The position numbers and the translations under genes are program-made. DNA of 64,000 nucleotides from Thermoplasmata archaeon (GTDB lineage: Archaea > Thermoplasmatota > Thermoplasmata > Thermoplasmatales > ARK-15). A model generated the notes under the pieces. That model saw only the letters and a list, made by a program, of their open reading frames with translations. It was not told where the DNA came from and made no database searches. Below, piece by piece: positions 29,675 through 64,000 of this stretch. Position 1 is the first letter of the stretch. Each line of letters begins with the position of its first letter. The stretch lies in NCBI GenBank assembly GCA_039794005.1, contig JBAMMA010000020.1, positions 1-64,000 of the forward strand, read 5' to 3'.

Positions 29675-31192
29675 TTCATCTTTAATATATTTCAGCATAT
29701 CTCTTATGTTAAAGGAATCTATAATGTATTTTATATCATTTTTATTAATTCCTTTTAATAGGTAAGATATTATAATGAAAATTAAATATGTTAATATGAA
29801 ATATGATATAAGATAATACCAATTTTTTGAAGGTAATTTGAAAAAGATTATTGAATACATTATAAAACCCGTTAAAATGCCTGAAATGATTTGCTTTATT
29901 ACCACATTATTAACGTAACTTTTTATATATCTTGATACATAAGTTCTGAATAAAAGGGAGTTTGCTGTAGTCGAAATAAATATAGATAATGCCAGACCCG
30001 TAGCTCCAAGGCCAAGCATTTTTATTCCAAATATGCTTTTGGGTATTGTTATAATATCCAGAAAGATTAAGAATAGGCTTGAAAATATCTGAATATACAT
30101 TGAATTCTTCGGTTTATCAATTGCATTGAAATGTGTAGAATATGGTATATTTATTGCGTTAACATATGCATTAATTCCCAAAATTACCAATACCATACTA
30201 AATGGAATTAAAGATGATGTCCATAAATTCAATATTTGATCTGAAAATATGATGAAAAATATTACAAATGGCAGGATCGTTATGGACAAAAATTTTTCAA
30301 ATTCTTGCATCAACCATGAATACTTATTTATATCGTTATTTTTATAAGATGATGATAAATTTGGCAGAATAAATGAAGATAGTGAAATCGTTATAGAATT
30401 AATGAACATGATTATATTGGTAATCGATATATATGCTCCCAGAAAAATCGGACCCCAGTAATATTGCAAAATCAAATTTGATGAATATGTGGCAATAATG
30501 TAAAAAATTGATGTAATCGAGACAGGTATTGCAAATCTAATATATGTTTTAAAATCTTCCTTTTCCGGTCTTACAAACTTCCAATCTCTTGCATAAATGG
30601 AATACAATAATACATATAATATATAACTCAATACTAATATAAATGCCAATGTCATTGAAAATTCTTCTTTATTCACAAGGGTTCTGGCAATAAAATAGCT
30701 AGTTAATATATATAAAACATTCCTAAATGTTGCCTCAATAATCCTTGGAATTGAAATTATGGCAGCCTTGGATAAGGCATTGAATGTTGCCTGATAAAAT
30801 AAAACTAAAGATTGCATTATATAATAAAATAGGATTAAAATTATTGTATAATATTCATATGGTGATGATAAATTCCTGCCAGTTATCATTTTTACAAAAA
30901 TAAGAGATGATAATGATACTGTTGTGAATATAATAATCAATATTAATTTGACAATAAAATAGACCGAAATACCTTTCCATGGATCGAATCCCTCTGATAT
31001 TTTCTTTATATGTGCAGTTGAAAATCCAAAATCCAGGATAAATGAAAACAATCCCAGATAGGATAATGAGAATTGTAAAATTCCATATGTCTCAAGGCCA
31101 GAATATCTCAATATAAAAAATAGTCCTATATATCCAATTATTCCGGTCAATATATTCTGAGCAACCATCAACAGAGATTTCCGACCTAACAT
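29660..31192 (-). CDS. Oligosaccharide flippase (Wzx/MOP superfamily)
   Basis: About 14 TM helices, YG.......Y...F....DFGF, GLGATG.A; 510 aa. Confidence 0.82.
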   Translation of the reverse strand: MLGRKSLLMVAQNILTGIIGYIGLFFILRYSGLETYGILQFSLSYLGLFSFILDFGFSTAHIKKISEGFDPWKGISVYFIVKLILIIIFTTVSLSSLIFVKMITGRNLSSPYEYYTIILILFYYIMQSLVLFYQATFNALSKAAIISIPRIIEATFRNVLYILTSYFIARTLVNKEEFSMTLAFILVLSYILYVLLYSIYARDWKFVRPEKEDFKTYIRFAIPVSITSIFYIIATYSSNLILQYYWGPIFLGAYISITNIIMFINSITISLSSFILPNLSSSYKNNDINKYSWLMQEFEKFLSITILPFVIFFIIFSDQILNLWTSSLIPFSMVLVILGINAYVNAINIPYSTHFNAIDKPKNSMYIQIFSSLFLIFLDIITIPKSIFGIKMLGLGATGLALSIFISTTANSLLFRTYVSRYIKSYVNNVVIKQIISGILTGFIMYSIIFFKLPSKNWYYLISYFILTYLIFIIISYLLKGINKNDIKYIIDSFNIRDMLKYIKDELRRI

Positions 31193-33124: not shown

Positions 33125-33442
33125 ATGTCTGATAATGAAAAGGATGAATACAGAATAACGGTAAGACTGGATAAAGATCTTTACATGGCTTTAAATAAAT
33201 TGGTCTCAGAAGGAGGGGTAAAAAGTATATCTGAATTAGTGAGAAATGCTTTGATAGAATACATTGAAGAACATTTAAAAACAGAAAATAAAAATTACAT
33301 TATTAAAAAAATAAGGCTAACAAAAATTGAATTAGAAAAAATCAAAGAAATTGTTGAATCTGGTGAGTTTATAGATGAACAAGAAGTAATCAGGAATGCA
33401 ATCAGAAAATATCTTGAATCTTTAGATGAAAATAAAAAGTAG
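33125..33442 (+). CDS. Tandem (double) ribbon-helix-helix protein
   Basis: RITVRL...L...L..LV..G...SISELVRNAL and KIRL....LE.I..IVESGEF.DEQEVIRNAIRKYL. Confidence 0.85.
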   Translation: MSDNEKDEYRITVRLDKDLYMALNKLVSEGGVKSISELVRNALIEYIEEHLKTENKNYIIKKIRLTKIELEKIKEIVESGEFIDEQEVIRNAIRKYLESLDENKK

Positions 33443-37105: not shown

Positions 37106-38626
37106 ATGGATATAACTACAGAAAACACTGGTGAAGGCCTACTATACCAATACTTAGCAAACATTATAATTACCATTTCGGGAATGTTTTTTTACCTCTA
37201 CACGATTCATTATTTTAACACAGATGTTGTTGGTCTTTTTTCCTTATTACTTGCTATTGCATCCCTCTTTAACATTCTATTTTCATTGGGTTTTCCTGCT
37301 GCCATTTCTCATTTTATTTCTTATAGCATTGGTCGAAGGTATTCTGGTGATATTAAAAAAATTATAAAATATGGAATTTTAATAGGATTATCCATTTCCT
37401 TAATTTCATTTTTATTTGTCTTCTCATTTTCTGAATACATTTCTAATTTGTTTTTTCACAATGAATATGACCTGTATCTGAAGTTACTATCTTTTGATAT
37501 ATTTTTAATGGTTTTAAACAATTTTCTAGTCTCAATACTATTTGGACTGCAAAAATTCAAATATGTTTCCATAGTACAATCATCAGGCAATTTAATTTCA
37601 TATTTTTCTGGGTTTATAATTTATCAATTTATTCATATATTATATATAATAATTATTGGATGGATTTTAGGCAATTTCATAATAACCATTTTTTCAATAA
37701 TATTAATAATCATTTATGATAAAAACATCAAAGTTGATAATCAAAACGAATTTAATATAAAAAAGATGTTTGCATATTCAATTCCAATTTATGCATCAAA
37801 CATATTAGGATATGGAGCGACATACGTAGACAGATTTGTTGTCTCTTATTTTTTGAATTTAAGTGATTTTGGTATTTATTCTTTAGCTATTTTAATGGTC
37901 ACAGCGTTAGGGTTTTTGCAGGGACCATTAAATAATGTTTTGCTACCAAAATTTTCAAAATTTTTTGGTGAAAATGATTTATACTCTTTAAAATTATATT
38001 CCTCAAAAGCCTTTATCTATATTCTTATAATAAATGTATCATTAACGTTTATATTGGCTGGTTTATCACCCTGGATTATAATTTTTATTTCGAATGAAAA
38101 TTACTTACAAGCGGCAATACCTTTCACCATAATTTCAATAATTATATCCATTTCCTTATCAGGGGGTGTATTATCTGTAGAAATACAAAGTGTTAGAAGA
38201 AATTGGATATTTGTAATATCATCATTAGTTGCAATATTAACAAATGTAACATTATGTTTTGCACTCATTCCTAATTATAAATTGATAGGTGCAGGCATCG
38301 CATTTTCAATTTCTACATTAATATATACGATAATCCTTTTGTTTTATACCTTAAAATTAAATATTTTTAAACTGGATATTACAAATATTATAAAAATTTA
38401 TATTTCAGGATTAATTGTATTTTTAATATTAATTTTTATACAAAAATTTTTATTCTATTCAACAATAAAATTATTTTTGTTAATAATTTTTGGTTATTCA
38501 ATTTACATCCTTTTAATAAGAAGTTTCAGAATTTTGAAAGAGGAAGATTTGGAAATAATAAAATCAATTACACCTAAAAAATTTTATAAGATTGTTGAAT
38601 TTTTTGAAATATTATTGTTTAGCTGA
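37106..38626 (+). CDS. Oligosaccharide flippase (Wzx/MOP superfamily)
   Basis: About 14 TM helices; YSIP......G...VDR.VV......FGIYSLA; LIP.Y.LIGAGIA. Confidence 0.82.
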   Translation: MDITTENTGEGLLYQYLANIIITISGMFFYLYTIHYFNTDVVGLFSLLLAIASLFNILFSLGFPAAISHFISYSIGRRYSGDIKKIIKYGILIGLSISLISFLFVFSFSEYISNLFFHNEYDLYLKLLSFDIFLMVLNNFLVSILFGLQKFKYVSIVQSSGNLISYFSGFIIYQFIHILYIIIIGWILGNFIITIFSIILIIIYDKNIKVDNQNEFNIKKMFAYSIPIYASNILGYGATYVDRFVVSYFLNLSDFGIYSLAILMVTALGFLQGPLNNVLLPKFSKFFGENDLYSLKLYSSKAFIYILIINVSLTFILAGLSPWIIIFISNENYLQAAIPFTIISIIISISLSGGVLSVEIQSVRRNWIFVISSLVAILTNVTLCFALIPNYKLIGAGIAFSISTLIYTIILLFYTLKLNIFKLDITNIIKIYISGLIVFLILIFIQKFLFYSTIKLFLLIIFGYSIYILLIRSFRILKEEDLEIIKSITPKKFYKIVEFFEILLFS

Positions 38627-44089: not shown

Positions 44090-44596
44090 ATGAGAAAGAT
44101 GACAGAAAAAAATCTTTTAGAAGCTTTTTCAGGTGAAAGCCAGGCTCACATGAGATACTTGATATTTGCTGATGTAGCCGAGAAGGAAGGGTATAAAAAT
44201 GTAGCTAGATTATTCAGGGCAATAGCTTATGCAGAACAAATACACGCAACGAATCACTACAAAATTGCTTTAGGTCTTGTAAAGGATACAGAGAGCAATT
44301 TACAAACAGCGATAGACGGAGAAACCTACGAAATAGAAGAAATGTATCCAGTTTTTAATGAAGTAGCAAAGTTCCAGGGCGAAAAAAATGCCGAAGTGAC
44401 AACACATAGTGCACTGGAAGCAGAAAAGATACATGCAGATTTATATAAGAAGGCCAAGGAATCCGTAAAATCCAAAAAGGATTATGATGTTGGAGACATT
44501 TACATTTGCAGTGTATGCGGATATACCACAGTAGGTAAGGCCCCCGAAAAATGTCCAGTATGTGGTGCACCACAGAGTGCATTTAAAAAGTTCTGA
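44090..44596 (+). CDS. rbr: Rubrerythrin
   Basis: AFSGESQA..RY, AEQIHA, GE.YE...MYP, AE..H, C-terminal CSVCG...CPVCG. Confidence 0.95.
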   Translation: MRKMTEKNLLEAFSGESQAHMRYLIFADVAEKEGYKNVARLFRAIAYAEQIHATNHYKIALGLVKDTESNLQTAIDGETYEIEEMYPVFNEVAKFQGEKNAEVTTHSALEAEKIHADLYKKAKESVKSKKDYDVGDIYICSVCGYTTVGKAPEKCPVCGAPQSAFKKF

Positions 44597-44602
44597 TCAG
44601 CT

Positions 44603-45079
44603 ATGGGAACCAAAGGTAGAGAGATTATTGAAATCAGCCTAAATGAATTGATATCAGATCTTTCAAAAGCCTACGCCGATCAGTGGATGGAAATTTATCT
44701 TTCATGGTATATAAAACATAATTACTTTGGGGATCAGGCCATTTATCTCATAGACACGATGGAAAATATCTATGCCCAGGCAATTAAAAGAGCTGAAAAA
44801 TTAACACAGAGGATCAGATCGTTAGGGGGAAACACTATTTATAATCCCACTGAAATTCTAAGACTTGGAAATTGCAGATATCCTGAAACATTAAATATCA
44901 ATGATTTACACTCTGTCTTAGAATCTCTTTTACTGTTGAAGAGATGCATAATTGAGGTTTACAATAGAATACTAAAGAAAACTTTTGGAAAGGATCCAAT
45001 AACATACCATATAATAGAATCCATGTTGGAAGAAGAGGTTGAAGAAGAAGATAAATTGGAAATTTTAAGAAAGAGGTAA
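44603..45079 (+). CDS. DPS-like (DPSL)/ferritin-like protein with degenerate di-iron site
   Basis: MGTKGREII, L.KAYADQW, RI..LGG, C.YP, RC.I.VY, T.GKDPITY, L.EEVEEE. Confidence 0.75.
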   Translation: MGTKGREIIEISLNELISDLSKAYADQWMEIYLSWYIKHNYFGDQAIYLIDTMENIYAQAIKRAEKLTQRIRSLGGNTIYNPTEILRLGNCRYPETLNINDLHSVLESLLLLKRCIIEVYNRILKKTFGKDPITYHIIESMLEEEVEEEDKLEILRKR

Positions 45080-45083
45080 AAAT

Positions 45084-45449
45084 ATGAAGAGGTTTGGTGA
45101 AAATTTATATCTGCCCGAGAAAGAGGGAAAGGAAAAGCATGCTCCTATAATTGAGGCCCCATCCAGTGTAAAGGCAAACGAGTGGTTTGAAATAAAAATA
45201 ACCGTCGGAAAGGATGTGCCACATCCAAATCTTGTAGAACACCACATAAAGTGGATTCAGGTATACGCCACAATTGATGGAAGGGCATTTAATCCCGTAC
45301 ATGTGGCAACATTCGACTTTGGTCCTACTTATGCAGATCCAAGGGTAACATTCAGGATGAAATTGGAAAAGAGTGCGACAATATATGCATTGGCCTATTG
45401 TAACTTACATGGAGTTTGGGAGAATTCTGTGGAAATAAAAGTTGAATAA
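45084..45449 (+). CDS. Superoxide reductase-like protein (neelaredoxin/class II SORL)
   Basis: EKH.P, VPHP...HHI.WI, YCNLHGVW. Confidence 0.9.
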   Translation: MKRFGENLYLPEKEGKEKHAPIIEAPSSVKANEWFEIKITVGKDVPHPNLVEHHIKWIQVYATIDGRAFNPVHVATFDFGPTYADPRVTFRMKLEKSATIYALAYCNLHGVWENSVEIKVE

Positions 45450-45472
45450 ATTTTTTCCTTTATTTTTTTGAG

Positions 45473-45922
45473 GTGATAATATTGGATTTAAAAGAATTAT
45501 TTGATACAGCCGTAAAAACAGAGGAAGAAGCATATGAATTTTACATAAATTTATCAAAAAAAGTTAAAAATCAATCATCCAAGAAATTGTTAGAGGATTT
45601 GGCGAATGAAGAACTTAACCACAAAAATATAATAATAAAATATTTCTTTGGTACATACAAAGTAATGGATAATATACCTTTGCTTAATTTATTGGACCAT
45701 CTTCCAAAGAAAGAGATTATAGATGAAAATTCTGACTTGAGAGAAATATTATCCCATGCAATACTAAGGGAAGAAAAAGAATACAATTTTTACAATGAAT
45801 TGGAAAAGTATATTGAAGATAAAAAAATCTTAGAAATATTGGAATTTTTAAAAAACCAGGAATTAAACCACAAGGCGAAATTAGAACATCTATACGATGA
45901 TATTGTATACAGTGAATTCTAA
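45473..45922 (+). CDS. Ferritin-like/rubrerythrin-family di-iron protein
   Basis: Two repeats of A...E......FY..L......L..EE..H; true start may be TTG 45482. Confidence 0.85.
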   Translation: MIILDLKELFDTAVKTEEEAYEFYINLSKKVKNQSSKKLLEDLANEELNHKNIIIKYFFGTYKVMDNIPLLNLLDHLPKKEIIDENSDLREILSHAILREEKEYNFYNELEKYIEDKKILEILEFLKNQELNHKAKLEHLYDDIVYSEF

Positions 45923-46428
45923 TGATTGAAGAAATATTGAAAAGAAAAAGCTATCGAAATTTCTCCGACAGGGAGGTAGATGAAAGGATAATCCTTGACA
46001 TTATAGAGGCTGGGAGACTTGCACCATCATGTTACAATAATCAACCTTGGCACTATGTACTTTTAAAAGGTAAAGAAAAATCGATAATAAATGATCATAT
46101 AAATCGGGGAAATTCTTGGGCAAAGAATGCCTATGCTTACATTGTGATGGTGTGCAACCCAAATGTAGACTGCAACATAAATGGTATTAATTATTCTTTA
46201 TTTGACTGTGGATTATCGGTGGAAAACATGTTATTGGAAGCATTTCATAATGGATTAATTGCACACAGCATAGCAGGATTCAACTCTGAAGGTTTAAAAA
46301 AGGCATTAAAAATTCCTGAAAATTTTTTAATCCCTGCCATTATTATTTTGGGATATCCCAATGGTAATGAAGAAAGGGCAAGGGAGAGAAAAGGCATAGA
46401 TGAAATATTGCACATGGGAGGGTGGTAA
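45922..46428 (+). CDS. Nitroreductase family protein
   Basis: RKSYR.F, LAPS..N.QPW, D.G....N..L.A...GL, LGYP. Confidence 0.9.
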   Translation: MIEEILKRKSYRNFSDREVDERIILDIIEAGRLAPSCYNNQPWHYVLLKGKEKSIINDHINRGNSWAKNAYAYIVMVCNPNVDCNINGINYSLFDCGLSVENMLLEAFHNGLIAHSIAGFNSEGLKKALKIPENFLIPAIIILGYPNGNEERARERKGIDEILHMGGW

Positions 46429-46429
46429 T

Positions 46430-46849
46430 ATGTTGAATGAAAATGATGATGTGTCCTTTATAGATGATTATTTTCCGGATAAAAAGAATAAATGGATAGT
46501 TCTATACTTTTATCCAAAGGATTTTACGTCCGGATGTACCAGGGAAGCAGAATCATTTAGGGACAATTTTGAAAAATTCAAGGAAATGAATGTAGAAGTA
46601 ATTGGAGTAAGCGTAGATGACAATGAAACACATAAAAAGTTCAAAGAAAAATTGAATATTCCTTTTGATTTATATAGCGATATAAATAAAGAATTGATAA
46701 AAAGATTTGGAGTGGAAAATCTGGGAAGGGCAAGAAGAACAACGTTCATTATAAGTCCGGATAGAAAAATTGTTAAAAAATGGGGGAGGGTGAGCGTTGA
46801 TAAACATGTTGAAGAGGTAATAAATGCATTAAAAGAGGTGATAAAATGA
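46430..46849 (+). CDS. bcp: Peroxiredoxin (BCP/PrxQ, single Cys)
   Basis: [29 protein letters not shown]; start at ATG 46430. Confidence 0.9.
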
Positions 46850-52164: not shown

Positions 52165-53373
52165 ATGAATAAAATAAAGGTTACATTCATCCTGGAAACG
52201 GCAATAGAATACGGAGGAGGAACTGAAAAAACCATATTGCAATACGGAAAATATTTGGACAAGGAAAAGTTTGATGTTTACATTATTCATTCAAATATTA
52301 TTGATAAAGGGAGGTTGGATCAGGAATACATAAAATCTGAATGTAAAGGATGCAATTTGATTAGAATAAATTATCCAACAATATTGAACAACTTATTAAT
52401 AAATAAGAAGTATGGTTTATCCGTTCAAAAGCGTAGCATAAAAAAGGATTTATTTTTAATTTATAATATTTTGGTAAGATTTTTAACATTAAATTCATTT
52501 AATAGGAAAATAAAAAAAATAATATTCAATTCTGATATAGTATACATTGTTTCAGATTATCAGGCATTTTATATTTTTCTACCCAATATGATTTTTAAAA
52601 GGAGAATGCCAATCATTATATTAGGGACACATAATTATTTACCCATTGAGAGGAGGAAAATTAATAGAATTGAAAATAAAATACTTGGTAGCATATTAAC
52701 AACAGTTCATTATACATCAAACAAAATAAAATCGTTATCAAAGATAAACGGTTTTGTGGTAAGCAGTGGAGTGGATGTAAATAAATATAGAGTTTCAGAA
52801 AAGGTAAATCCAATTCCTAAATATCTCTTCGTTGGAAGACTGGTTGAGTATAAGGGATTATATGAATTGATTAAGGCCTGGGAAATTTTTATAAGGGAAA
52901 ATAATGGTGAATTACACATAGTTGGAACTGGCGAACTTGAAAATTTTGTAATACAAAAATCTAAGGAATTAAAGAATATAATTTATCATGGGTTTGTGAG
53001 CGATGATGATCTGATAGATATATATTATAATTCCGATGTTTTGGTTTTTCCGACATATGGTCCAAAACATGATGAATATTTTGGTTTAGTTGTAATTGAA
53101 TCATTGGCTTCTGGATTATTCGTTATTCTGAGCAATGAAATGAAGGGAATATTTGATGAATTTGAAAAATCAGGTTCATTAATGTATGTTAAATTAGATC
53201 CTTATGCCATATATGAATCTATGGTTTATGCATCAAGGAATTTGAATGTTCTTAAAATGAATGCCAGAAATATGAGAAGATATATTGAAGAAAATTATGA
53301 TTGGAAAAAGATAGCTGAAAAATTAGGTGAAAATTTTTATAGAATTGTTAATGAAAAGGATAATGCTGGTTAA
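52165..53373 (+). CDS. Glycosyltransferase family 4
   Basis: GGTEK, FVGRL..YKG, IVGTG, EYFGLVVIESLASG. Confidence 0.88.
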   Translation: MNKIKVTFILETAIEYGGGTEKTILQYGKYLDKEKFDVYIIHSNIIDKGRLDQEYIKSECKGCNLIRINYPTILNNLLINKKYGLSVQKRSIKKDLFLIYNILVRFLTLNSFNRKIKKIIFNSDIVYIVSDYQAFYIFLPNMIFKRRMPIIILGTHNYLPIERRKINRIENKILGSILTTVHYTSNKIKSLSKINGFVVSSGVDVNKYRVSEKVNPIPKYLFVGRLVEYKGLYELIKAWEIFIRENNGELHIVGTGELENFVIQKSKELKNIIYHGFVSDDDLIDIYYNSDVLVFPTYGPKHDEYFGLVVIESLASGLFVILSNEMKGIFDEFEKSGSLMYVKLDPYAIYESMVYASRNLNVLKMNARNMRRYIEENYDWKKIAEKLGENFYRIVNEKDNAG

Positions 53374-53667
53374 AAGCATAATTGATCCCGTCAATAATGA
53401 ATAAAATAATAATAGAATAATGCATGGTAAATTGGAAATGGAGCTCAATGTAAATAAAAATCTATTTAGCAAATCCAATGGATATAATAAATAAAGAGAT
53501 AAGGGAGTTAAAAAACCTATCAAAAATGATATCAGGAATAAGATTTTACCTCTTATTGGATACAAGATAATAGCTGCTAAAATGAATAAAAATGGATATC
53601 CAATCAATAATACCAGATATGATATGATTATTGAAAATATTATTGGTAATATAATTTTAAGGTTCAT
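53323..53667 (-). CDS. Small integral membrane protein coupled to the acylase gene
   Basis: 114 aa, 3-4 TM helices; start overlaps the acylase stop. Confidence 0.65.
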   Translation of the reverse strand: MNLKIILPIIFSIIISYLVLLIGYPFLFILAAIILYPIRGKILFLISFLIGFLTPLSLYLLYPLDLLNRFLFTLSSISNLPCIILLLFYSLLTGSIMLLTSIILFINNSIKIFT

Positions 53668-56116
53668 AATTATAAATTACCTCCTCTTTCCATCCATATC
53701 CATAATTTACATATTCATGGTTATACCATAAATTCATTTGATTCATGTAATAATAACTGAGAAAATTCTCACTTGGACCACCGGGAAATATTCCTAAGTA
53801 TATGTTTAAGCCTGGGATATCAATTTTCCTCAAAGATGAAGATAATGTTACATATGGTAATGGAAATTTTATTATGAATTCAGTCGGGCCAACTGAAACA
53901 GTGTGGTCATCCCCATAAAATGGAATGGGACCATAAGATAAAGCCAATAGACCGGTAATGCTCGAAATTAATAATTTATGTACCTTACCCCAATACCAAT
54001 TGTAAAAATTGTTGCCCAGATTATTTATTAATTCTGAAATAGTTTCCTTGAAAGATATTTGCAAAATTTTTGTAGAATTGTTATCAAACCAGAATGAAGA
54101 TGGATAATTTTTCAGTAAATATATGAGAGAAGTTTCGAATGGAGGATATAAAAATGATATATTATATAATTTTTCATAATAAAAGAATGTGTTGTTATAA
54201 ATGTTAGAAACATAATACCAATAAATGGTCATACCAATAGAATTTATATCGGCTGAACAATTCCAATTTTCCAATATTTTAAATGCTTCTTTTTCTGTCT
54301 CATTCATAGTCATATTTGAAATATATTTTATCAATATTGGCTTTAGCATTTCAGCCCATGAATCTGTCAGATTGGACTGTAATTCTTCCATATCAGTTAA
54401 ATTTATTTCATCATGGTTTTTCAAATAATTATATATGCTTAATGCCCTACCTCCAGATGCCCAAAATCCACCTATAAAAGGATATGGATAATTCATGCCT
54501 ACTGGTGGTTGATTGGGTGCAAAGGCAAATCCTCTTTCAGGATCCATTACCTGAGGCAAATATTTAAATGGAACATATCCACAATATGAATATCTTGGAT
54601 CAGAGCCATTTAATAAACTCCTGGACCCAATTACATATACAGTCTTATTGTTTGGCAGTACCTCTTTTATGAGAGGGTAATAACCTGCAGTAACATAACC
54701 CGCATGATGTAATGATATCAAGGCAAAGTTTTGCGGTGGGTAACCCCAATATCTCAGTGCATTTACCATATCCGTATAATTGTTGCTCATATCCAATTTT
54801 AATTCTGCAATAAAAATATAGGATATTTTAGAAGCAGTCCAGTCAACAGATATTCCAAAATTTTTGTATCTACCTATTATAGGACCATGATTTGTATAAT
54901 ATAAAGTGTACTTTTTATTTAAAACGGTAAAATTATATTCAACAAGTTTATGCCATGTGTTATTATATAAATAATAATCCCCGTTCAATATTTCTAAATA
55001 ATCATTGGCACTGTTTCCCTCGGCGGATGTAATTCCCCAGGATGTATTTTTAGTATGTCCAATCAAAATTCCGGGAATACCCACAAGTGCCCAACCAGTA
55101 ACATTCATGTTAGGATCTACCAATTGCAAAGGAATCCACAATGAGGGCAAAATTAAATTTAGATGCGGGTCATTTGCAATCATTGGATATCCATAACTGG
55201 AATAGTTAGAAGTAATTATCCAGCTATTACTACCTACACCGAAATGACTATATTCGATAAATGGATCCGAAATGTTTTCATATGAAATTCTCAAAAGATA
55301 TGTTAGATTTTTTATGATATTTGGATCTATTCCAGTAGCCCATTCTGAAAACCAATTTAAATGCCAAAAGTATGTAGTGTTAATGCCCTGGTCCGTTAAA
55401 TTATACCCATTTATGGTACCATCTCCAGGAACAATGGTAATATTTTGTGTGTAATAGGGATAAAATGGCCAGACAGACATAGTATTATTATATCCAAAAT
55501 ATGAATAAAATAAATCCATTTCGATAGGTTCATATATACCTGTTGTCAAAAATAATGTCATATATTCTTCCCAAACAATTGTATCAAAAGGTGACCAGTA
55601 AAATGGTTTTACATTTAATATTTTAAATTCGAATGACAGTTGGCTTTGATTTATAAAATCATTAACACCCTGTGAAAATGACAATAAATAATCGTAATAT
55701 GTCTTTTCATTCTCTTTGTATGCTATCATTAAATTATATGCATTTTCTGGCAGACCCAGATAATGCATGGCAATATCTGATCTATACTCTGATTTTATCC
55801 ATTTACTCAAATTACCAGATGCAAGAAGGGCCTCTATCTCCATCTGAAATAATCTGTTTTGAGCCATGTAATATCCTTCCGCTAAAAAGAGATCTTTATT
55901 GTCTTTAGCGTATATATGTGCAATACCATTTGAATCTATGTAAATTTTAACAGGGTATTCAATACCCTTTAAATAAATTGTTTGAGATGTGTAATTTGAA
56001 TAGTTAATTTCTGTGAAAATACCGTTGTAAGGATCCAAATATGTAAATTGGATAGAAAATATGGAAATCATAATTAAGATTACAATGAGTATGGATTCAA
56101 TTAAAACATATTTCAT
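53657..56116 (-). CDS. Penicillin acylase-family Ntn hydrolase (peptidase S45), membrane-anchored or secreted
   Basis: N-terminal signal anchor, D..GIAHIYA, A..RLFQM, GSNSW (Ser nucleophile), ANDPHL, T.HGP, PGG.S; many sequons. Confidence 0.9.
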   Translation of the reverse strand: MKYVLIESILIVILIMISIFSIQFTYLDPYNGIFTEINYSNYTSQTIYLKGIEYPVKIYIDSNGIAHIYAKDNKDLFLAEGYYMAQNRLFQMEIEALLASGNLSKWIKSEYRSDIAMHYLGLPENAYNLMIAYKENEKTYYDYLLSFSQGVNDFINQSQLSFEFKILNVKPFYWSPFDTIVWEEYMTLFLTTGIYEPIEMDLFYSYFGYNNTMSVWPFYPYYTQNITIVPGDGTINGYNLTDQGINTTYFWHLNWFSEWATGIDPNIIKNLTYLLRISYENISDPFIEYSHFGVGSNSWIITSNYSSYGYPMIANDPHLNLILPSLWIPLQLVDPNMNVTGWALVGIPGILIGHTKNTSWGITSAEGNSANDYLEILNGDYYLYNNTWHKLVEYNFTVLNKKYTLYYTNHGPIIGRYKNFGISVDWTASKISYIFIAELKLDMSNNYTDMVNALRYWGYPPQNFALISLHHAGYVTAGYYPLIKEVLPNNKTVYVIGSRSLLNGSDPRYSYCGYVPFKYLPQVMDPERGFAFAPNQPPVGMNYPYPFIGGFWASGGRALSIYNYLKNHDEINLTDMEELQSNLTDSWAEMLKPILIKYISNMTMNETEKEAFKILENWNCSADINSIGMTIYWYYVSNIYNNTFFYYEKLYNISFLYPPFETSLIYLLKNYPSSFWFDNNSTKILQISFKETISELINNLGNNFYNWYWGKVHKLLISSITGLLALSYGPIPFYGDDHTVSVGPTEFIIKFPLPYVTLSSSLRKIDIPGLNIYLGIFPGGPSENFLSYYYMNQMNLWYNHEYVNYGYGWKEEVIYNYEP

Positions 56117-56254
56117 AAATGTTATAATTGCAATATAATAAAATAATTTTACGATTTATAAATTAATTTATTAATATTTATTTAAATATATTTTAAAAAT
56201 GAAAAATTAATATCATTGATAAAAATTATATATAAATTTAAAATGGAGATAAAC

Positions 56255-57064
56255 ATGCAAAACAATAGGCGAGTTGAAGGTGGACTTAGCTTAAATGCAA
56301 AGGAAGAGATTGCCAAGATTGTCATAAAGGATGCGCTTGAAAGGTATAAAAGACCTTTTGTTGTATGGTCAGCGGGTAAAGACAGCATGGTTGTTTTACA
56401 TTTAGTCAAAACGTATGTTGAAAAAAATAACCTAGAAATGCCACCTGCATTGTTTATTGACCACGGCCAACACTATGATGAAACATTGGAAATGATTGAT
56501 AAAATCAGTAAAGAATGGAACTTCAAAGTAATTTTTGCAAGAAATGAAGATGCTCTGGGAAAAATAAAAGATGGGAAAATATACGTAAAAGATTTAAATG
56601 AAGAAAATCAGATGGAGGTAAGAAAAATAGGCTTTTTAGGTGATTATTTCGAATATTCTCTCGAAACTGATGTTGGAAATCATATTTTGAAAACTGTTGC
56701 TATGAATGATGCAATAAGAAGGTACAGGATAGATGCACTATTTACAGGTATTAGATGGGATGAGAACGAAGCAAGATCATGGGAAGTATTTATTTCGCCA
56801 AGGGAAGATCCCCCACATGTCAGGGTTCATCCAATATTGCCTTTTACTGAAAGAAATATTTGGGAATATACGTTTAAATACAATTTGCCAATTCATCCAC
56901 TTTACAAACAGGGATATAGGTCAATAGATGGAAAATACGATTCGAAAAAAACAGATGATAGACCTGCATGGGAACAAGACTTAGAGCATACTTATGAGAG
57001 GGCAGGAAGATCTCAAGATAAAGAAGGAATGATGGAAAAACTTAGAAGATTTGGCTACATGTGA
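56255..57064 (+). CDS. CysD-like adenylyltransferase (PAPS reductase superfamily), no cysteines
   Basis: WSAGKDSMVVLHL, H.LKT, G.RWDE..AR, RVHPIL.FTE..IW.Y, ERAGR.QDKE..M..LRR.GY; start at ATG 56255. Confidence 0.8.
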   Translation: MQNNRRVEGGLSLNAKEEIAKIVIKDALERYKRPFVVWSAGKDSMVVLHLVKTYVEKNNLEMPPALFIDHGQHYDETLEMIDKISKEWNFKVIFARNEDALGKIKDGKIYVKDLNEENQMEVRKIGFLGDYFEYSLETDVGNHILKTVAMNDAIRRYRIDALFTGIRWDENEARSWEVFISPREDPPHVRVHPILPFTERNIWEYTFKYNLPIHPLYKQGYRSIDGKYDSKKTDDRPAWEQDLEHTYERAGRSQDKEGMMEKLRRFGYM

Positions 57065-58431
57065 ATATGGATACAAATATTTTTTTAATTATCTTAGATA
57101 CGTTAAGAAAGGATGTGATGTCTTTATATGGAGGGGATACAGATACTCCTTTTATAAACGAGATAGCAAGAGACGGCATAATATTTGAAAATGCCATTTC
57201 ACCAGGTAACTGGACACCAACTTCTCACATGTCGATATTTTCAGGACTTTATCCCAGGGAACATGGTGTACATGAAAATTATGATGAGGGTGATGAAATA
57301 ATATTTAAAAAACTGTTAGAATATAATGGGGATAACATTTTAGAATATCTATATAAAAAAGGTTACAATAATATAGGATATTCCACAAATCCATGGCTAT
57401 CACCGGGATCAAGATTTGACAATTACTATTCATCATTCACATTTTATTCATCTGAATATTTATCTGAGAGGGAAATGGAAGATGTAATGGAATATAAAAA
57501 ATATGGAAAAAATAGGATAGAGGCAACAAAATATTTAATTTCACATGGAAAATTTGATGAATTTTTGCATTATTATCACACGTTCAAATGGATGTTGAAA
57601 AAGAAGAAAGAATACGATTATCCTTTTTACAAAGCCTCAGATGTGATTGTTGATCATATAATAAACAGCAGTTTTAATGAACCCTTATTTATGTTTATAA
57701 ATTTCATGGAGGTTCATGAACCAAGTTCAAGATGGGAATTGGATGTAGACGATAGAAAGATAAAGTATAATGATCTTTTTGGATTTGATATTATAAATGA
57801 AAAAAAGATCAATGAAGTTAAAGAGGGATATAAAAAATCCTTGAAAAATGTTGATTATGAAATCGGAAGATTAATAAATTTTTTGAAAAAGAAAAAGATC
57901 TATGATGATTCTTTAATCATAATCACTTCAGATCATGGTCAAGCATTTAAAGAAAAAAGAAAAATACAATTTTACGGACATGGTAATTTCTTATACGATG
58001 AAATTATAAATATTCCCCTAATAGTTAAATTTCCTAAAAATTATAAGATAAAAAGAAAATCCGGTTATCAAACATTAGTCAATATCAAAAAATTGATTGA
58101 AATGGTAATAGAAAATAACTACGAGGATAGTTTGACCGAGGAGGTAGTATTCTCAGAAATGTTTGGCCCAGTACATAATTTAAAGAGGCTGATGAATGAA
58201 GGGATTATTAAAAAAGTTGATAATATTGATCATAAAATAAGGGAATACTTCCCCAAAAGGAAGGCAGTATTCAAGAATGGTTTTAAATTGGTAATAAATG
58301 GTGAAAATGGACAAATTGAAGAATTCACCTTCCATGGAAAAAATGCGGATGTATCTGAACATCCAAATGTTATTAAAGATTTAAAGGAAGAATTGTCAAT
58401 TTTTAAAGGGAATGAAAAATTTATAATTTAA
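57061..58431 (+). CDS. Sulfatase-like hydrolase/transferase (alkaline phosphatase superfamily), Thr-type
   Basis: ILDTLR.D, SPGNWTPTSH...SGLYP..HG, FINFME.H.P, TSDHG, HG..LYDE..IPL; no signal peptide. Confidence 0.85.
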   Translation: MNMDTNIFLIILDTLRKDVMSLYGGDTDTPFINEIARDGIIFENAISPGNWTPTSHMSIFSGLYPREHGVHENYDEGDEIIFKKLLEYNGDNILEYLYKKGYNNIGYSTNPWLSPGSRFDNYYSSFTFYSSEYLSEREMEDVMEYKKYGKNRIEATKYLISHGKFDEFLHYYHTFKWMLKKKKEYDYPFYKASDVIVDHIINSSFNEPLFMFINFMEVHEPSSRWELDVDDRKIKYNDLFGFDIINEKKINEVKEGYKKSLKNVDYEIGRLINFLKKKKIYDDSLIIITSDHGQAFKEKRKIQFYGHGNFLYDEIINIPLIVKFPKNYKIKRKSGYQTLVNIKKLIEMVIENNYEDSLTEEVVFSEMFGPVHNLKRLMNEGIIKKVDNIDHKIREYFPKRKAVFKNGFKLVINGENGQIEEFTFHGKNADVSEHPNVIKDLKEELSIFKGNEKFII

Positions 58432-58452
58432 TTATAAATTAATAAAATTGTC

Positions 58453-59547
58453 ATGAAAATATTACAATTAGCACATGGTTTAATAATACCTGAATACATT
58501 TCTGCATATAGTTTGAGAGTACATTCATTAATAAAAAATAATAATAGAACAATAATTTCCATTGGTGGCCCAACAATAAAAAATATAATTCAAGATAATG
58601 TAATTCAATACAGGGCTATTTTATTGATGATTTATTCATTTGTTAAAAAAAATAGGGGGTTTGAAATATATTTGTCTGAAGGTAAATTTATTTCTAAAAA
58701 AATAATAAAAAATATAAGAGAGAATATTAAAAATTCTGATATCATTATTTATGAAGGTCCATGGTTATTTCCATTGACAGAGGATTTCATTGAAAATAAA
58801 TTTGTAGTTTACGACGCACACAATGTTGAATATGAATTAAGAAAAAATAATAAATTCAGGGATAAGGCATATGAGATTGAAAAGTCATTGGTAAAAAGAT
58901 CAAATTTAATTTTATCCTTTTCGGAAAATGATACAAAATTATTAAAAGAATTATACAAAAATGAAAATGTAATTACGGTAAAACACGTTTTAAATTTACC
59001 TGATTATAAATGGAATGGATTAAATAATAAAGATATAATATTCATCGGTTCTATATACGATGAAAACATAAAAGCATTAAACAATATTTCAAGATTTGCA
59101 GAAATATTAAAGGATTTCAAATTTCATATAATTGGAAATTTAAAAGATTATCCCGGTAGGCCAAAAAGGAAGAATATAATTTATCATGGATTGTTAAATG
59201 AAAAGGAAAAAGATTATGTTATGAATAATTCATTCTTGGCAATAAACCCAGTTGAAGGGGGTTCTGGTAGAAACCTGAAGATGGTAGATTACATTTTTCA
59301 TGGAATACCAGTTTTAACCACAGAAATCGGTGCAAGAGGCTTTGATGATGATACAAAATCACTCTTCTATATAGAAAAAATAGAAAATTTTCCAGATAAA
59401 ATTGTTGAATTAGATAGAAAGAGGGATGAATTAAAAAACATTTCAATCAAATTATATGAACAAGCCAAAAAGATTTATGAAAAAGAATATACAAATGTTG
59501 AAAAGATATTAGAAAATTATTATTTAAAAAATAAAGAATTTCGTTAA
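58453..59547 (+). CDS. Glycosyltransferase family 4-like (GT-B)
   Basis: VYDAHNVE, FIGS....N, NPV..GSG..LK..DY...G.PV.TT..GARG. Confidence 0.85.
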   Translation: MKILQLAHGLIIPEYISAYSLRVHSLIKNNNRTIISIGGPTIKNIIQDNVIQYRAILLMIYSFVKKNRGFEIYLSEGKFISKKIIKNIRENIKNSDIIIYEGPWLFPLTEDFIENKFVVYDAHNVEYELRKNNKFRDKAYEIEKSLVKRSNLILSFSENDTKLLKELYKNENVITVKHVLNLPDYKWNGLNNKDIIFIGSIYDENIKALNNISRFAEILKDFKFHIIGNLKDYPGRPKRKNIIYHGLLNEKEKDYVMNNSFLAINPVEGGSGRNLKMVDYIFHGIPVLTTEIGARGFDDDTKSLFYIEKIENFPDKIVELDRKRDELKNISIKLYEQAKKIYEKEYTNVEKILENYYLKNKEFR

Positions 59548-59590
59548 TTTTAAATTTTATTATACAATATACAGGATTTATAAATTAAAG

Positions 59591-59944
59591 GTGGTAAAGA
59601 TGGCTAAGATTCTAACTATAGTTATTACCGGAAAGGAAAATATAAATAGGGTAAATGTTGCTTTTAATTTTAGCATTAATGCCAGAAAGAATAACAATTA
59701 TGTTGAAATACTCTTTATTGGTCCGGGAGTTCAGATTATAAATAAAAGGCATGCCTTTTCTCAAACCTTTATCAATAATATAAAAAATTTACAGGAATCA
59801 GGTATTAAAATCAAAGCATGCATTAACAGTATAAACAGCGAAGGTCTTTCAAAAGATGATATATTTGAGGGTATTGAATTTGTGGGAGGAGCAATTGAAG
59901 CCGCAGAGAGAATTTCCGAAGGATATATACCGGTGACATTCTGA
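59591..59944 (+). CDS. DsrE/F-like family protein
   Basis: VEILFIGPGV, GIKIKACINS (single Cys), G....TF C-terminus; start may be ATG 59600. Confidence 0.75.
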   Translation: MVKMAKILTIVITGKENINRVNVAFNFSINARKNNNYVEILFIGPGVQIINKRHAFSQTFINNIKNLQESGIKIKACINSINSEGLSKDDIFEGIEFVGGAIEAAERISEGYIPVTF

Positions 59945-60727
59945 ATGTTCGATCTTTCATTAATACAAATCATACTTTCCATAATTTCCGGTTTAATAGT
60001 TGGATTTTCGCTTGGATTAATCGGCGGTGGAGGATCAATACTGGCAATACCGTTGTTGATTTATTTGGTTGGTTATAATCATCCACACACAGTTATTGGT
60101 ACAACTGCTCTCGCAGTTGGAATAAATGCATATCTTAATCTAATTCCACATGCAAGAAAAAATAATGTGAAATTCAAACCGGGAATAATATTTAGCATCT
60201 TTGGAGTTTTTGGAGTATTATTGGGAGCACAACTGGGTCTTATAACTCCAGGAAAAAAGTTGTTATTTTTATTTGCAATTGTGATGATTATTATAGCTAT
60301 TAACATGTACAGAAAAAAATGCCCCAGCAACGTTAATGAAAAAATAAACAAAAAACCTAATTACTATTTGTTGATTTTATATGCTTTTTTGGTCGGATTT
60401 GCATCTGGATATTTTGGGATTGGTGGCGGATTTATGATTGTGCCGAGCTTAATGTATGGGGCTGGATTAAATATATTAAATGCAATTGGCACATCACTTT
60501 TAAGTGTCGGAACCTTCGGAATTACAACTGCAATAAGATATTCATTAAGCGGTAAAATAAATATATTTATTACAATTTTATATATTTCAGGAGGAATATT
60601 TGGTGGATGGATCGGTGCACATTTTGCTCATAGAGTACCGAGGATGTTGTTGACAAAGATATTTGCAATCATAATTATAATTGTGGCCATATACATGATT
60701 TATGAAAATGTAACAGCATTCCCCTAA
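59945..60727 (+). CDS. TauE/SafE (TSUP) sulfite/sulfur-compound transporter
   Basis: Two repeats G..GL.GGGG....P and G..SG.FGIGGG...VP....AIGTSL; about 8 TM helices. Confidence 0.9.
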   Translation: MFDLSLIQIILSIISGLIVGFSLGLIGGGGSILAIPLLIYLVGYNHPHTVIGTTALAVGINAYLNLIPHARKNNVKFKPGIIFSIFGVFGVLLGAQLGLITPGKKLLFLFAIVMIIIAINMYRKKCPSNVNEKINKKPNYYLLILYAFLVGFASGYFGIGGGFMIVPSLMYGAGLNILNAIGTSLLSVGTFGITTAIRYSLSGKINIFITILYISGGIFGGWIGAHFAHRVPRMLLTKIFAIIIIIVAIYMIYENVTAFP

Positions 60728-62458: not shown

Positions 62459-64000
62459 ATGTTGAATAAGGAAAAAGGGATATCATCCATACCGGGGGTA
62501 TTATTAGTTGTTATTATAACAATTGTATTATTTTCAGCCACTTTTATATATGTAGTAAACAATATAAATAATTTTGCCCCTTCTAAACAATCATATTTTT
62601 CGGTTAATATGATATTTCCCTCAGGCACTCAATCCGGGTATTTTAAATTAATCGTTAAAAATGAATATGGAAGCAGTATATCTACAATGAATACTGAATT
62701 TGAAATTCTAATAGTTGAAAAAAATCAGGTAATTTATAAAACACATTTATTATCTGAATTCATACACGATATGTATTGGAATTATGGTCAAAATTTTACT
62801 TATAATTCACAGATGGATTCAATATCCATTCAATTATCAAACAGTACACAGGTATTTGTCGGATTTATAAACCTAAATAATCATAATGTAATATGGTATT
62901 CAAAGATAACAAATGTAATGATTTCTAAACCTCTCTCTCTTTCATCATTTACACCCGTGAATGTTAGTGTAGGAACACCTATTAATTTAATTGCGGATGT
63001 TTATGGTGGGGATCCTCCATATCATTATTATTGGAACGTAACCGGTCCAGGTTACTGGCTTACAGCCCCGTATAATAAATCAACATTGTTGTACCCTTCC
63101 AGCGCTGGAATTTATATTGTAAATTTAACGGTATATGATAGTTTTAATGCAACAAATGTATATGGTCCCACTGGAAACATAATTTATAATTATCAAAATT
63201 ATACACCACCTTCAATACCTCATCCAATACAAAATAATACCACAGTATCAACATATTCAGGTTTCTTTATACCATATCTTTATCCAGATTATGTTGGATA
63301 TCCTGAAGATCTGCAGAAACATGCTAAAATTATTGAAGGATTACAATATGAGGCATTTGGACTCGGCAATGATGGAAGCTTAGTATATTGGGGAGATAGT
63401 GGAGTCACTAAAGTATTAAAAAGCCTTGGAATTCCAGCATACCCAATGATCGTAAATAGTTATAAGATATCAAAAACAATGGCCTTGTTAAATAATCCAA
63501 ATGTTCAGAAACAATTTATAAATTCTGCTATAATGTATGCCCAGCAAAATGGATATGCTGGATATTCAATAGATTTTGAACCACCTAGTAATGGAGATTT
63601 CACAATACAGGATTCACAGAAATTTATAGACTTTTTAAATGAATTTGCAAATGCTTTACATCAATATGGATTAAAACTTATGGTAGCAATTGATCCTGCA
63701 TATAATCGAAATCCAATATCTAATCTTTACTATTATTTCTACCATCCAGATGAAAAAATCATGGTGGATTATGTTGAAATAATGGCTTATGAAGGCCATT
63801 ATTCTGGACCGGCAAGCTTTCAAAGTGCAGTTAATTCTATTGTTTCTGCCACTGGCCAATATCTGTCCTTGAATCAAATAGTTATAATATTATCAACAAC
63901 AAACCCAAACACAAATCGGCCTTTCACAGATCAGGAATTGCAAGAAAGAATTAATTATACAGAGCAGAATAACATTAAAGGTTTATCCGTTTGGTCTTTA
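62459..64000 (+). CDS. Pilin-like protein (class III signal peptide) fused to PKD-like and GH18 chitinase-like domains; truncated by window end; not in the ORF track
   Basis: Frame open from ATG 62459 to 64000: MLNKEKG|ISSIPGVLLVVIITIVLFS; GGDPPYHYYW..G.Y.VNLTV.DS; GYAGYSIDFEP, VDYVEIMAYE, KGLSVWSL. Confidence 0.85.
   Translation, partial: MLNKEKGISSIPGVLLVVIITIVLFSATFIYVVNNINNFAPSKQSYFSVNMIFPSGTQSGYFKLIVKNEYGSSISTMNTEFEILIVEKNQVIYKTHLLSEFIHDMYWNYGQNFTYNSQMDSISIQLSNSTQVFVGFINLNNHNVIWYSKITNVMISKPLSLSSFTPVNVSVGTPINLIADVYGGDPPYHYYWNVTGPGYWLTAPYNKSTLLYPSSAGIYIVNLTVYDSFNATNVYGPTGNIIYNYQNYTPPSIPHPIQNNTTVSTYSGFFIPYLYPDYVGYPEDLQKHAKIIEGLQYEAFGLGNDGSLVYWGDSGVTKVLKSLGIPAYPMIVNSYKISKTMALLNNPNVQKQFINSAIMYAQQNGYAGYSIDFEPPSNGDFTIQDSQKFIDFLNEFANALHQYGLKLMVAIDPAYNRNPISNLYYYFYHPDEKIMVDYVEIMAYEGHYSGPASFQSAVNSIVSATGQYLSLNQIVIILSTTNPNTNRPFTDQELQERINYTEQNNIKGLSVWSL

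Follow-up and report, generated by a model that had tools for sequence, protein, structure and literature searches.

The window analysed here, a stretch of 64,000 nucleotides (positions 1 to 64,000 of contig JBAMMA010000020.1, assembly GCA_039794005.1) from a Thermoplasmata archaeon, carries a gene cassette that is a real, conserved module, most likely one in which an activating enzyme and a sulfatase-fold transferase act as a pair in archaeal glycan sulfation. The two central genes encode a stand-alone, cysteine-free PP-loop protein resembling CysD (gene 1) and a threonine-type protein of the sulfatase fold (gene 2), and they are accompanied by glycosyltransferase genes. More specifically, and here our judgement is evenly balanced, the genes at 52165-53373 and 56255-59547 may constitute a cytoplasmic glycan-sulfation module that operates without CysN, an APS (adenosine 5′-phosphosulfate) kinase or a classical sulfotransferase, with APS itself as the donor. 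In such a module, gene 1 would adenylylate sulfate (ATP + sulfate yielding APS and pyrophosphate), the flanking GT4-type transferases would build the acceptor sugar, and gene 2 would move the sulfuryl group from APS to a hydroxyl of this lipid- or nucleotide-linked sugar on the cytoplasmic side, possibly through a sulfo-threonine intermediate at its conserved metal site. Domain identities, motifs, the conserved linkage with its fusions, the glycan-gene surroundings and the missing APS kinase are observed, whereas we infer that gene 1 acts on sulfate, that the donor is APS, that gene 2 performs the sulfotransfer, and what the acceptor is; cell-surface sugars are the most likely target of the sulfate in this archaeon. 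The genes of the cassette and those directly following it are listed below.

52165..53373, plus strand: GT4 glycosyltransferase (PF00534, 76.2 bits; PF13692, 70.7 bits).
56255..57064, plus strand: gene 1, stand-alone cysteine-free CysD-like PP-loop protein (PF01507, 116.9 bits).
57061..58431, plus strand: gene 2, Thr-type sulfatase-fold protein of the alkaline-phosphatase superfamily (PF00884, 122.3 bits; PF01663, 70 bits).
58453..59547, plus strand: gene 3, GT-B glycosyltransferase, GT4-like (PF13692, 34.1 bits).
59591..59944, plus strand: DsrE-like small protein, doubtful as a member of the module (PF02635, 41.6 bits).
59945..60727, plus strand: TauE/SafE-family anion permease (PF01925, 175 bits).

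The stop codon of gene 1 is overlapped by the GTG start of gene 2 at 57061 (4 bases), and an alternative ATG start for gene 2 at 57067 lies 2 bases past this stop. Gene 3 follows after 21 bases; its sole Pfam match is PF13692 (Glyco_trans_1_4), and because this match reaches only 34.1 bits the GT4 label is a family-level guess. A gap of 43 bases separates gene 3 from the DsrE-like gene, which abuts the TauE gene. A preliminary description of this DNA, made from its letters alone, had reported the overlap of genes 1 and 2, the GT-B gene 21 bp downstream, the order of the DsrE and TauE genes, the WTPTSH motif and the missing signal peptide of gene 2, and all of these were recovered as described. 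It had also stated that cysN, cysC and classical sulfotransferase genes are absent from the window; a Pfam scan covering 63 window open reading frames (sets of 9 and 54) upheld this, as none of them has a domain of cysN, cysC, sat or the classical sulfotransferases.

The open reading frame of gene 1 opens at a TTG codon (56216), has ATG codons at 56243 and 56255, and ends at 57064; the database form of the protein, of 269 aa, uses the start at 56255. The SAGKDS PP-loop is located at residue 39, and the motif S-x-G-K-D-S is invariant in 18 family members. The C-terminal tail, ERAGRSQDKEGMMEKLRRFGYM, is a CysD-type one that does not vary within the family. It was aligned with three annotated CysD proteins, encoded beside cysN or GTP-binding genes, and one CysH: the segment ERAGRSQDKE..MEKLRRFGYM aligns with the CysD tails of the three bacteria, whereas CysH ends in ECGLH instead. 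In database comparisons, the top PDB sequence match is CysD (1zun, E 1.7e-12) and the best NCBIfam model is CysD NF003587, which, together with the tail, bear out the CysD-like assignment made in the preliminary description. Gene 1 contains 0 cysteines and no Cys is conserved across the 18 members, so that a thiol-dependent reductase is excluded for the family. The candidate role of a Cys-dependent reductase of APS or of PAPS (3′-phosphoadenosine 5′-phosphosulfate) was rejected on this count and on the GYM end found where CysH has ECGLH; the PP-loop, the tail, the lack of cysteine and the exclusion of such a reductase had all been read in the same way before, and they stand. From these sequence features, gene 1 is proposed to be a CysN-independent sulfate adenylyltransferase producing APS.

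Structurally, the AlphaFold model of gene 1 (pLDDT 87.8) adopts the PAPS-reductase fold. It matches FAD synthase (8ron, Z 22.0), APS reductase (4bwv, Z 21.5), PAPS reductase (2oq2, Z 21.2), CysD (1zun, Z 19.7) and FMN (flavin mononucleotide) adenylyltransferase (3g6k, Z 18.6), and among the first four of these CysD gives the lowest root-mean-square deviation (1.9) and the highest identity (28% over 170 residues). The first of these matches, the PAPS-reductase-like domain of human FAD synthase (root-mean-square deviation 2.3 over 191 aligned residues), and a weak sequence match to 8rom (E 1.8e-06) are what would be expected if gene 1 were a eukaryote-type FMN adenylyltransferase (FAD synthetase) lying beside gene 2 by accident. 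This role is very improbable, and it is the worst fit of the three rival functions weighed here, the others being phospho-decoration of glycans and sulfate salvage, because gene 1 is patchily distributed and RibL candidates are present. A family found in 8 of 401 genomes is ill-suited to an essential cofactor enzyme, the genome that contains the window has a RibL-like candidate of the cytidylyltransferase family, and haloarchaea retain the gene 1 family although Haloferax has RibL (HVO_1015; PMC8305020). The CysD-type tail and the fusion of 49 of the 50 long forms to domains of the alkaline-phosphatase (AP) fold, described below, likewise argue against an FAD synthetase.

Gene 2 carries WTPTSH at residue 51, with W-T-x-P-S-H as the form common to its family. 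Thr occupies the position of the sulfatase Cys/Ser and His that of the Arg in C/S-x-P-x-R, and because this motif is replaced by T-x-P-S-H the protein is unable to form formylglycine. Invariant in 21 family sequences are D13, R16, W51, T52, H56, N214, E217, H219, S290-D291-H292 and H307, which include the metal ligands D13, D291 and H292. The first β-strand, which bears D13, begins at residue 7, and this leaves no room for a signal peptide; on the structural model, gene 2 is predicted to be cytoplasmic and to retain its metal site. Both Pfam matches exceed their cut-offs by a wide margin (PF00884, 122.3 against 25 bits; PF01663, 70 against 23 bits). The model (pLDDT 92.7) has its nearest solved folds among the S1 sulfatases, with 323-372 residues aligned: 6hr5 (Z 33.2), 6hhm (33.0), 5g2t (32.9) and 5g2u (32.7). 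Sulfatases and phosphonate monoester hydrolases fill the ranks above YejM/PbgA, the first non-sulfatase (rank 42, Z 28.4), which, unlike the entries ranked above it, lacks formylglycine chemistry. No NPP structure occurs among the best 50 fold matches; of a possible two-metal site of the NPP or alkaline-phosphatase type, sequence conservation shows D13, D291, H292 and H307 to be kept in gene 2. The Thr-type, sulfatase-fold protein without signal peptide of the preliminary description is supported by the invariance of T52, the Z of 33 to S1 sulfatases and the early first β-strand, and gene 2 is proposed to be a glycan sulfotransferase.

The same pair of proteins could carry out phospho-decoration, in which gene 1 would adenylylate a phosphate ester or another oxyanion, as FMN adenylyltransferase does, and gene 2, acting as a Ser/Thr-type transferase like NPP, LtaS or EptA, would split the anhydride so formed and place a phospho-substituent or a nucleotide on the glycan. 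The PF01663 match of gene 2 (70 bits) points in this direction, as does its T-x-x-x-H spacing, which resembles the NPP nucleophile motif; many partners of gene 1 relatives match PF01663 alone and have Ser as the nucleophile residue, and the fold of gene 1 is no closer to CysD (Z 19.7) than to FAD synthase (Z 22.0). Against these stand the family-invariant tail that gene 1 has in common with bona fide CysD, the S1 sulfatases as nearest folds of gene 2, with the first non-sulfatase only at rank 42, and the suitability of the PiT-type transporter of a Halopiger cluster and of the TauE permease of the window for an inorganic anion. Genetic precedent for sulfotransferases of the sulfatase fold (PMC11980604) also favours sulfation. 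We consider phospho-decoration unlikely, though of the three rival functions it is the one to be taken most seriously.

The pairing of genes 1 and 2 extends well beyond the window. Across 80 loci retained out of 295 genomes carrying a gene 1 relative, partner classes were assigned by profile searches of all open reading frames, with genes within 300 bases counted as adjacent. An AP-superfamily gene is present at 45 of the 80 loci, fused to gene 1 in 4, adjacent in 33 and within 5 kb in 8; the neighbourhood check named in the preliminary description therefore returned a partner at 45 loci, 37 of them fused or adjacent. None was seen at the other 35, which are mostly from Parvarchaeota/Nanoarchaeota or on short contigs. 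Two types of partner occur, the gene 2 type (PF00884) and a PF01663 type of ~255 or ~440 aa whose nucleophile position holds Ser. Fusions of both types exist (PF00884+PF01507 and PF01663+PF01507), natural examples being L059 6585-8786 and L070 6531-8810, and the carriers of gene 1 include the cultured Oxyplasma meridianum M1 (L046). When the database relatives of gene 1 (E ≤ 1e-20) were restricted to lengths of 472-2000 aa, 49 of 50 bore PF01663 and/or PF00884. Thr or Ser occupies the nucleophile position in each of the 24 partner AP proteins for which the alignment has a residue there.

Across 401 sampled genomes from the phylum of the window, where counts are descriptive as related genomes are not independent, gene 2 is present in 7 of 8 gene 1-positive genomes and in 22 of 393 gene 1-negative ones. 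All seven hold it on the same contig as gene 1: five directly adjacent, one (G232) ~1.5 kb away and one (G090) in two pieces; in the eighth genome, gene 1 itself is no more than a fragment, located where a contig ends. Moreover, in five genomes of Parvarchaeota/Nanoarchaeota gene 1 is unlinked, and 4 of these retain a gene 2-family gene elsewhere; it is full length in three (E 1e-148 to 1e-153) and truncated by the end of a contig in one. In ARMAN-4, the unlinked gene 2-family gene lies between two GT4 genes. These data support a functional coupling of genes 1 and 2, with a pairing beyond chance that holds across phyla and in fused forms. Synthesis of APS is strongly unfavourable, while sulfuryl transfer from APS is strongly favourable, and these thermodynamics would explain why overlapping or fused genes could stand in for a CysN GTPase or an APS kinase: in a tightly coupled pair, the exergonic transfer catalysed by gene 2 would pull the unfavourable synthesis by gene 1.

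Two further forms of the partner gene were encountered. In three carriers, the gene 2 homologue beside gene 1 is broken into 2-3 pieces (L012 3095-4489; L066 8999-10202; G090 C1:899244-902103), and the carriers include the cultured Thermocladium modestius; a broken gene 2 beside a whole gene 1 suggests decay of the transferase. Upstream of distant gene 1 relatives, nine loci of Archaeoglobales, Aenigmatarchaeota, Hydrothermarchaeota and other metagenome-assembled genomes (L067-L069, L072, L073, L076, L078, L082, L083) encode a PF01663-type protein of ~255 aa with the motif W-S-P-S-V-W and Ser at the nucleophile position. Its gene directly precedes the gene 1 relative in 8 of the nine and lies ~1 kb upstream in L078.

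The cassette is embedded in a setting of glycan synthesis. Homologues of the upstream GT4 gene (52165-53373; E 1e-123 to 1e-193) stand directly before gene 1 at five other Thermoplasmata loci (L007, L010, L011, L012, L014), giving the recurrent order GT4, gene 1, gene 2 and a further glycosyltransferase. In the window and at L004, the GT4 gene is split from gene 1 by two minus-strand genes. Homologues of gene 3 occur at 7 loci (E 1e-88 to 1e-164) and, weakly, at an eighth (L077, E 3e-07); they lie right after gene 2 in L004, L007, L010 and L011 and after the gene 2 fragments in L012. GT4-type genes flank gene 2 in the window, at L004-L015 and in ARMAN-4, and neighbours at other loci include genes for a GT2 glycosyltransferase, an FkbM methyltransferase, a flippase, a DegT aminotransferase and an epimerase. 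The recurring gene order and the ARMAN-4 gene between two GT4 genes agree with the glycan-synthesis setting proposed in the preliminary description. In haloarchaea, plasmid pHALXA01 of Halopiger xanaduensis carries a gene 1 homologue amid two genes annotated as sulfatase and two as alkaline phosphatase family, together with three GT4 genes and the gene of a PiT-type transporter labelled as an inorganic phosphate transporter, and both sulfatases align Thr with T52. The homologue on pNATPE01 of Natrinema pellirubrum follows aglM, aglF and a flippase gene.

Several other genes of the window touch on this setting. The two minus-strand genes between the GT4 gene and gene 1 (53323-56116) encode an 819-aa protein of the penicillin-amidase family (Ntn hydrolase) with 27 N-x-S/T sequons and a 114-aa membrane protein; they look like an insertion into the cassette. 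Two genes for Polysacc_synt-family flippases, at 29660-31192 (minus strand) and 37106-38626 (plus strand), are located 20-27 kb upstream of the module and could export a glycan decorated by it. The 513 residues encoded by a gene at 62459-64000 (plus strand), which runs past the window end, include a membrane anchor at the N terminus, 11 N-x-S/T sequons and a weak match to GH18 (36.4 bits); this large protein is probably a glycoprotein of the cell surface, on which the glycosylation genes may act. No RHH gene lies beside gene 1, and the only RHH protein of the window (33125-33442) is without a GYM tail.

Searches for the classical sulfate-activation enzymes define what gene 1 could contribute. 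In the genome that contains the window, which is 87% complete, no PF01747 ATP sulfurylase was found, no APS kinase or CysN exceeded its cut-off, Sulfotransfer_1 and Sulfotransfer_3 were not found, and gene 2 is the only PF00884 gene. The best CysN match, of 293 bits, stays below the cut-off of 336, and ~1.8 kb away from it a 734-aa open frame gives a second GTPase match that is weaker. This sub-threshold candidate was rejected as CysN and read as the elongation factor aEF-1alpha. CysN was likewise not seen among the neighbour clusters of the 80 gene 1 loci. No real APS kinase was found in five relatives carrying the pair, only N-terminal P-loop scraps of 21.3 and 19 bits, and from this gene content PAPS synthesis appears unlikely in this group. 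Two of the five (G090 and G238), both single-contig assemblies 99% complete, have no Sat. Gene 1 is the only candidate sulfate activator in at least these two complete genomes; elsewhere it coexists with Sat.

The presence of Sat in some relatives shows that sulfate assimilation exists in the group, and gene 2 belongs to the Pfam Sulfatase family (122.3 bits). A different division of labour could be drawn from this, in which gene 2 is a hydrolase that releases sulfate within the cell from sulfated organic compounds and gene 1 re-activates it for assimilation through other PAPS-reductase-family proteins; two further PF01507 genes are indeed present on contig 17 of the same genome. Such salvage is improbable on several counts. 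The formylglycine motif is absent, with Thr and His in place of Cys/Ser and Arg throughout the gene 2 family; the protein is cytoplasmic on the model; the cassette holds no reductase or sulfite reductase; glycosyltransferases flank gene 2 constantly, even where it is unlinked from gene 1; and the fusion of a hydrolase to an activating enzyme has no obvious logic.

The gene 1 family is large, strongly conserved, and widely but unevenly distributed. It comprises 653 database matches from Thermoplasmata, Nitrososphaerota, Parvarchaeota and Micrarchaeota, with identities of 60-85%, and relatives at ~40% identity in haloarchaea, where the branch comprises 2196 matches of ~323 aa with ~80% identity between genera. 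The 8 positive genomes of the 401-genome sample all belong to one order, and a second sample, of 301 genomes from the phylum of genome G406, contains relatives in 51. In the latter phylum, four genomes (G425, at C5:660046-662828; G592; G607; G612) carry two tandem gene 1-family copies 1-2 kb apart. At the Parvarchaeota/Nanoarchaeota loci L017-L039, the gene after gene 1 encodes, in 15 of them, a lineage-specific protein of ~160 aa to which Pfam gives no match, with a ~100-aa protein next in 10 and a Trp/Tyr-tRNA synthetase gene nearby. Among 20 haloarchaeal loci, no neighbour recurs in more than 5, and the aldo/keto reductase, DUF7110 and PhoU-type regulator genes found there are uninformative on function.

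Precedents for sulfatase-fold sulfotransferases come from haloarchaea. In Haloferax volcanii, deletion of agl7 (HVO_2046) leaves the low-salt tetrasaccharide that is carried on dolichol phosphate unsulfated, and Agl7, annotated as an N-acetylgalactosamine-4-sulfatase and predicted to be cytosolic, is needed for sulfation of the dolichol phosphate-bound hexose; its neighbour HVO_2047, a 296-aa hypothetical protein, was deleted with no detected effect (PMC3892788, Kaminski et al. 2013). We suspect that HVO_2047 may be a gene 1 homologue. In Halobacterium salinarum, deletions, together with expression of the genes in Haloferax, identified Agl30 (VNG1056C) and Agl31 (VNG1057C) as N-glycan sulfotransferases; both belong to the alkaline-phosphatase superfamily, with 5G2U and 6HHM as nearest structures (PMC11980604, Zaretsky et al. 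2025). In that paper, the words PAPS and donor have 0 occurrences, and the portion seen of a follow-up (PMC12624080) makes no mention of PAPS. Compared by fold and context, gene 2 resembles Agl7, Agl30 and Agl31 in being an AP-superfamily protein of the sulfatase fold encoded in a glycosylation cluster. Like Agl7 and Agl31, described as cytosolic, it is predicted to be cytoplasmic, and the structures 6HHM and 5G2U given there rank 2 and 5 among its own matches. Unlike the haloarchaeal systems, for which these papers name no donor or activating enzyme, gene 2 is joined to a CysD-like protein, through translational coupling in the window and through fusion in other organisms. The genetic demonstration in haloarchaea makes the sulfation reading of the window much more plausible and, at the same time, less new. 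A search of the open-access literature for a stand-alone CysD or an APS-using sulfatase-fold transferase found nothing.

Comparison with the classical enzymes places both genes at some distance from their relatives. Gene 1 has the SxGKDS loop, the PAPS-reductase fold and the ERxGR...ME...GY(F/M) tail of CysD from CysD-CysN and NodP-NodQ (PDB 1ZUN), but it lacks a CysN partner, falls below the CysD cut-offs, and is paired with an AP-fold protein rather than with a GTPase or an APS kinase. By analogy with NodPQ, it is conceivable that it represents a CysD copy dedicated to glycan decoration. Gene 2 resembles S1 sulfatases (PF00884; 6HR5, 6HHM, BT1596) in fold (Z ~33) and in its conserved metal-site Asp and His, and differs from them in its Thr/His motif, its missing signal peptide and its biosynthetic context. 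The pair as a whole would, like the classical PAPS pathway (Sat or CysDN, CysC, and NodH/Stf), produce a presumed O-sulfated glycan from ATP and sulfate; in contrast to that pathway, there is no APS kinase above the cut-off in the window's genome and no real one in the five relatives, no Sulfotransfer_1 or Sulfotransfer_3 in the former, and the transferase has another fold. A classical cysD-cysN pair in a glycan setting was also encountered, on the conjugative IncF plasmid pKTa005_1 of E. coli (L102), between genes for a glycosyltransferase, an epimerase and an SLC13 permease; its surroundings suggest a unit that activates sulfate specifically for a surface polysaccharide. More tentatively, the window may document a third kind of sulfation, in which a G-protein-free CysD and a Thr-nucleophile enzyme use APS by way of sulfo-threonine and bypass PAPS, and which would supply the activator missing in haloarchaea and many DPANN archaea; we hold this to be a speculative possibility.

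Several observations weigh against the proposed scheme. Gene 1 scores under all CysD cut-offs (NF003587, 101.9 against 195 bits; TIGR02039, 83.6 against 396.6; NF009214, 79 against 413), and two CysD insertions are missing from its family. Foldseek and VIA-align place FAD synthase, the APS and PAPS reductases and CysD within ~2 Z units of each other, so that CysD is not singled out by structure. To our knowledge, CysD by itself is not known to be efficient without CysN, and we know of no biochemical precedent for Thr-based sulfuryl transfer. The partnership is not obligatory, because 22 genomes have gene 2-like proteins without gene 1; an AP-fold gene is adjacent in only 2 of 20 gene 1 loci examined in the phylum of G406, and most gene 1 loci of haloarchaea and Parvarchaeota have gene 1 by itself. 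The glycan context was not seen on three other haloarchaeal plasmids with a gene 1 homologue. Sat is present in 3 of the 5 relatives carrying the pair (G232, G271, G361), and as the window's own genome is 87% complete, gene 1 need not be the sole activator. The genome search for cysN, cysC and sat suggested in the preliminary description thus agreed with it in the window's genome, where none exceeded the cut-off, while the same-family genome G232 does have Sat. Finally, DsrE and TauE homologues stand beside gene 1 in only 1 of the 80 loci, L004, the nearest relative.

This last count bears on the extent of the module. The run of five genes from gene 1 to the TauE gene could be a single sulfur unit, in which TauE imports sulfate (or exports sulfite) and the DsrE-like protein handles a sulfur intermediate. 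All five lie on one strand with short gaps (43 bases before DsrE; DsrE and TauE abutting), L004 holds the same five genes, and anion transporters of other families are found beside gene 1 relatives or CysD elsewhere. A single recurrence is what recent common ancestry alone would give, and we regard the larger unit as doubtful. The DsrE/TauE link drawn in the preliminary description, there already called weaker, is weakened further by its recurrence in L004 alone; TauE could import sulfate for the module, although the link is weak.

The source genome has a size of 1.10 Mb with ~30% G+C in 20 contigs, of which the window is contig 20, and the loci nearest to it belong to metagenome-assembled Thermoplasmata genomes. 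DNA of the window is present, whole or in part, in four hot-spring metagenome DNA runs, and no RNA run is listed for it. The remaining genes are ordinary chromosomal ones, including tRNA synthetases, RadA, GAPDH, methylmalonyl-CoA mutase and an oxidative-stress cluster. The latter is compact and lies on one strand (44090-46849, plus strand), encoding a rubrerythrin, a ferritin-like protein, a desulfoferrodoxin-type superoxide reductase, a second rubrerythrin, a nitroreductase and a peroxiredoxin.

Sulfated N-glycans and glycolipids are prominent in archaea, and the transferases responsible were identified genetically only in 2013 and 2025. The pairing of a CysN-less CysD-like protein with a Thr/Ser sulfatase-fold protein offers a testable answer to the question of the donor, namely APS made on the spot without a kinase. 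If correct, this would give the alkaline-phosphatase superfamily a new sulfation chemistry that does not depend on PAPS, and the third kind of sulfation considered above would amount to a self-contained machine of two enzymes, or of a single fused polypeptide, without the classical sulfotransferase fold. Many annotations of such genes as PAPS reductase and sulfatase would be corrected, and the retention of both genes by very small symbiotic archaea would be explained.

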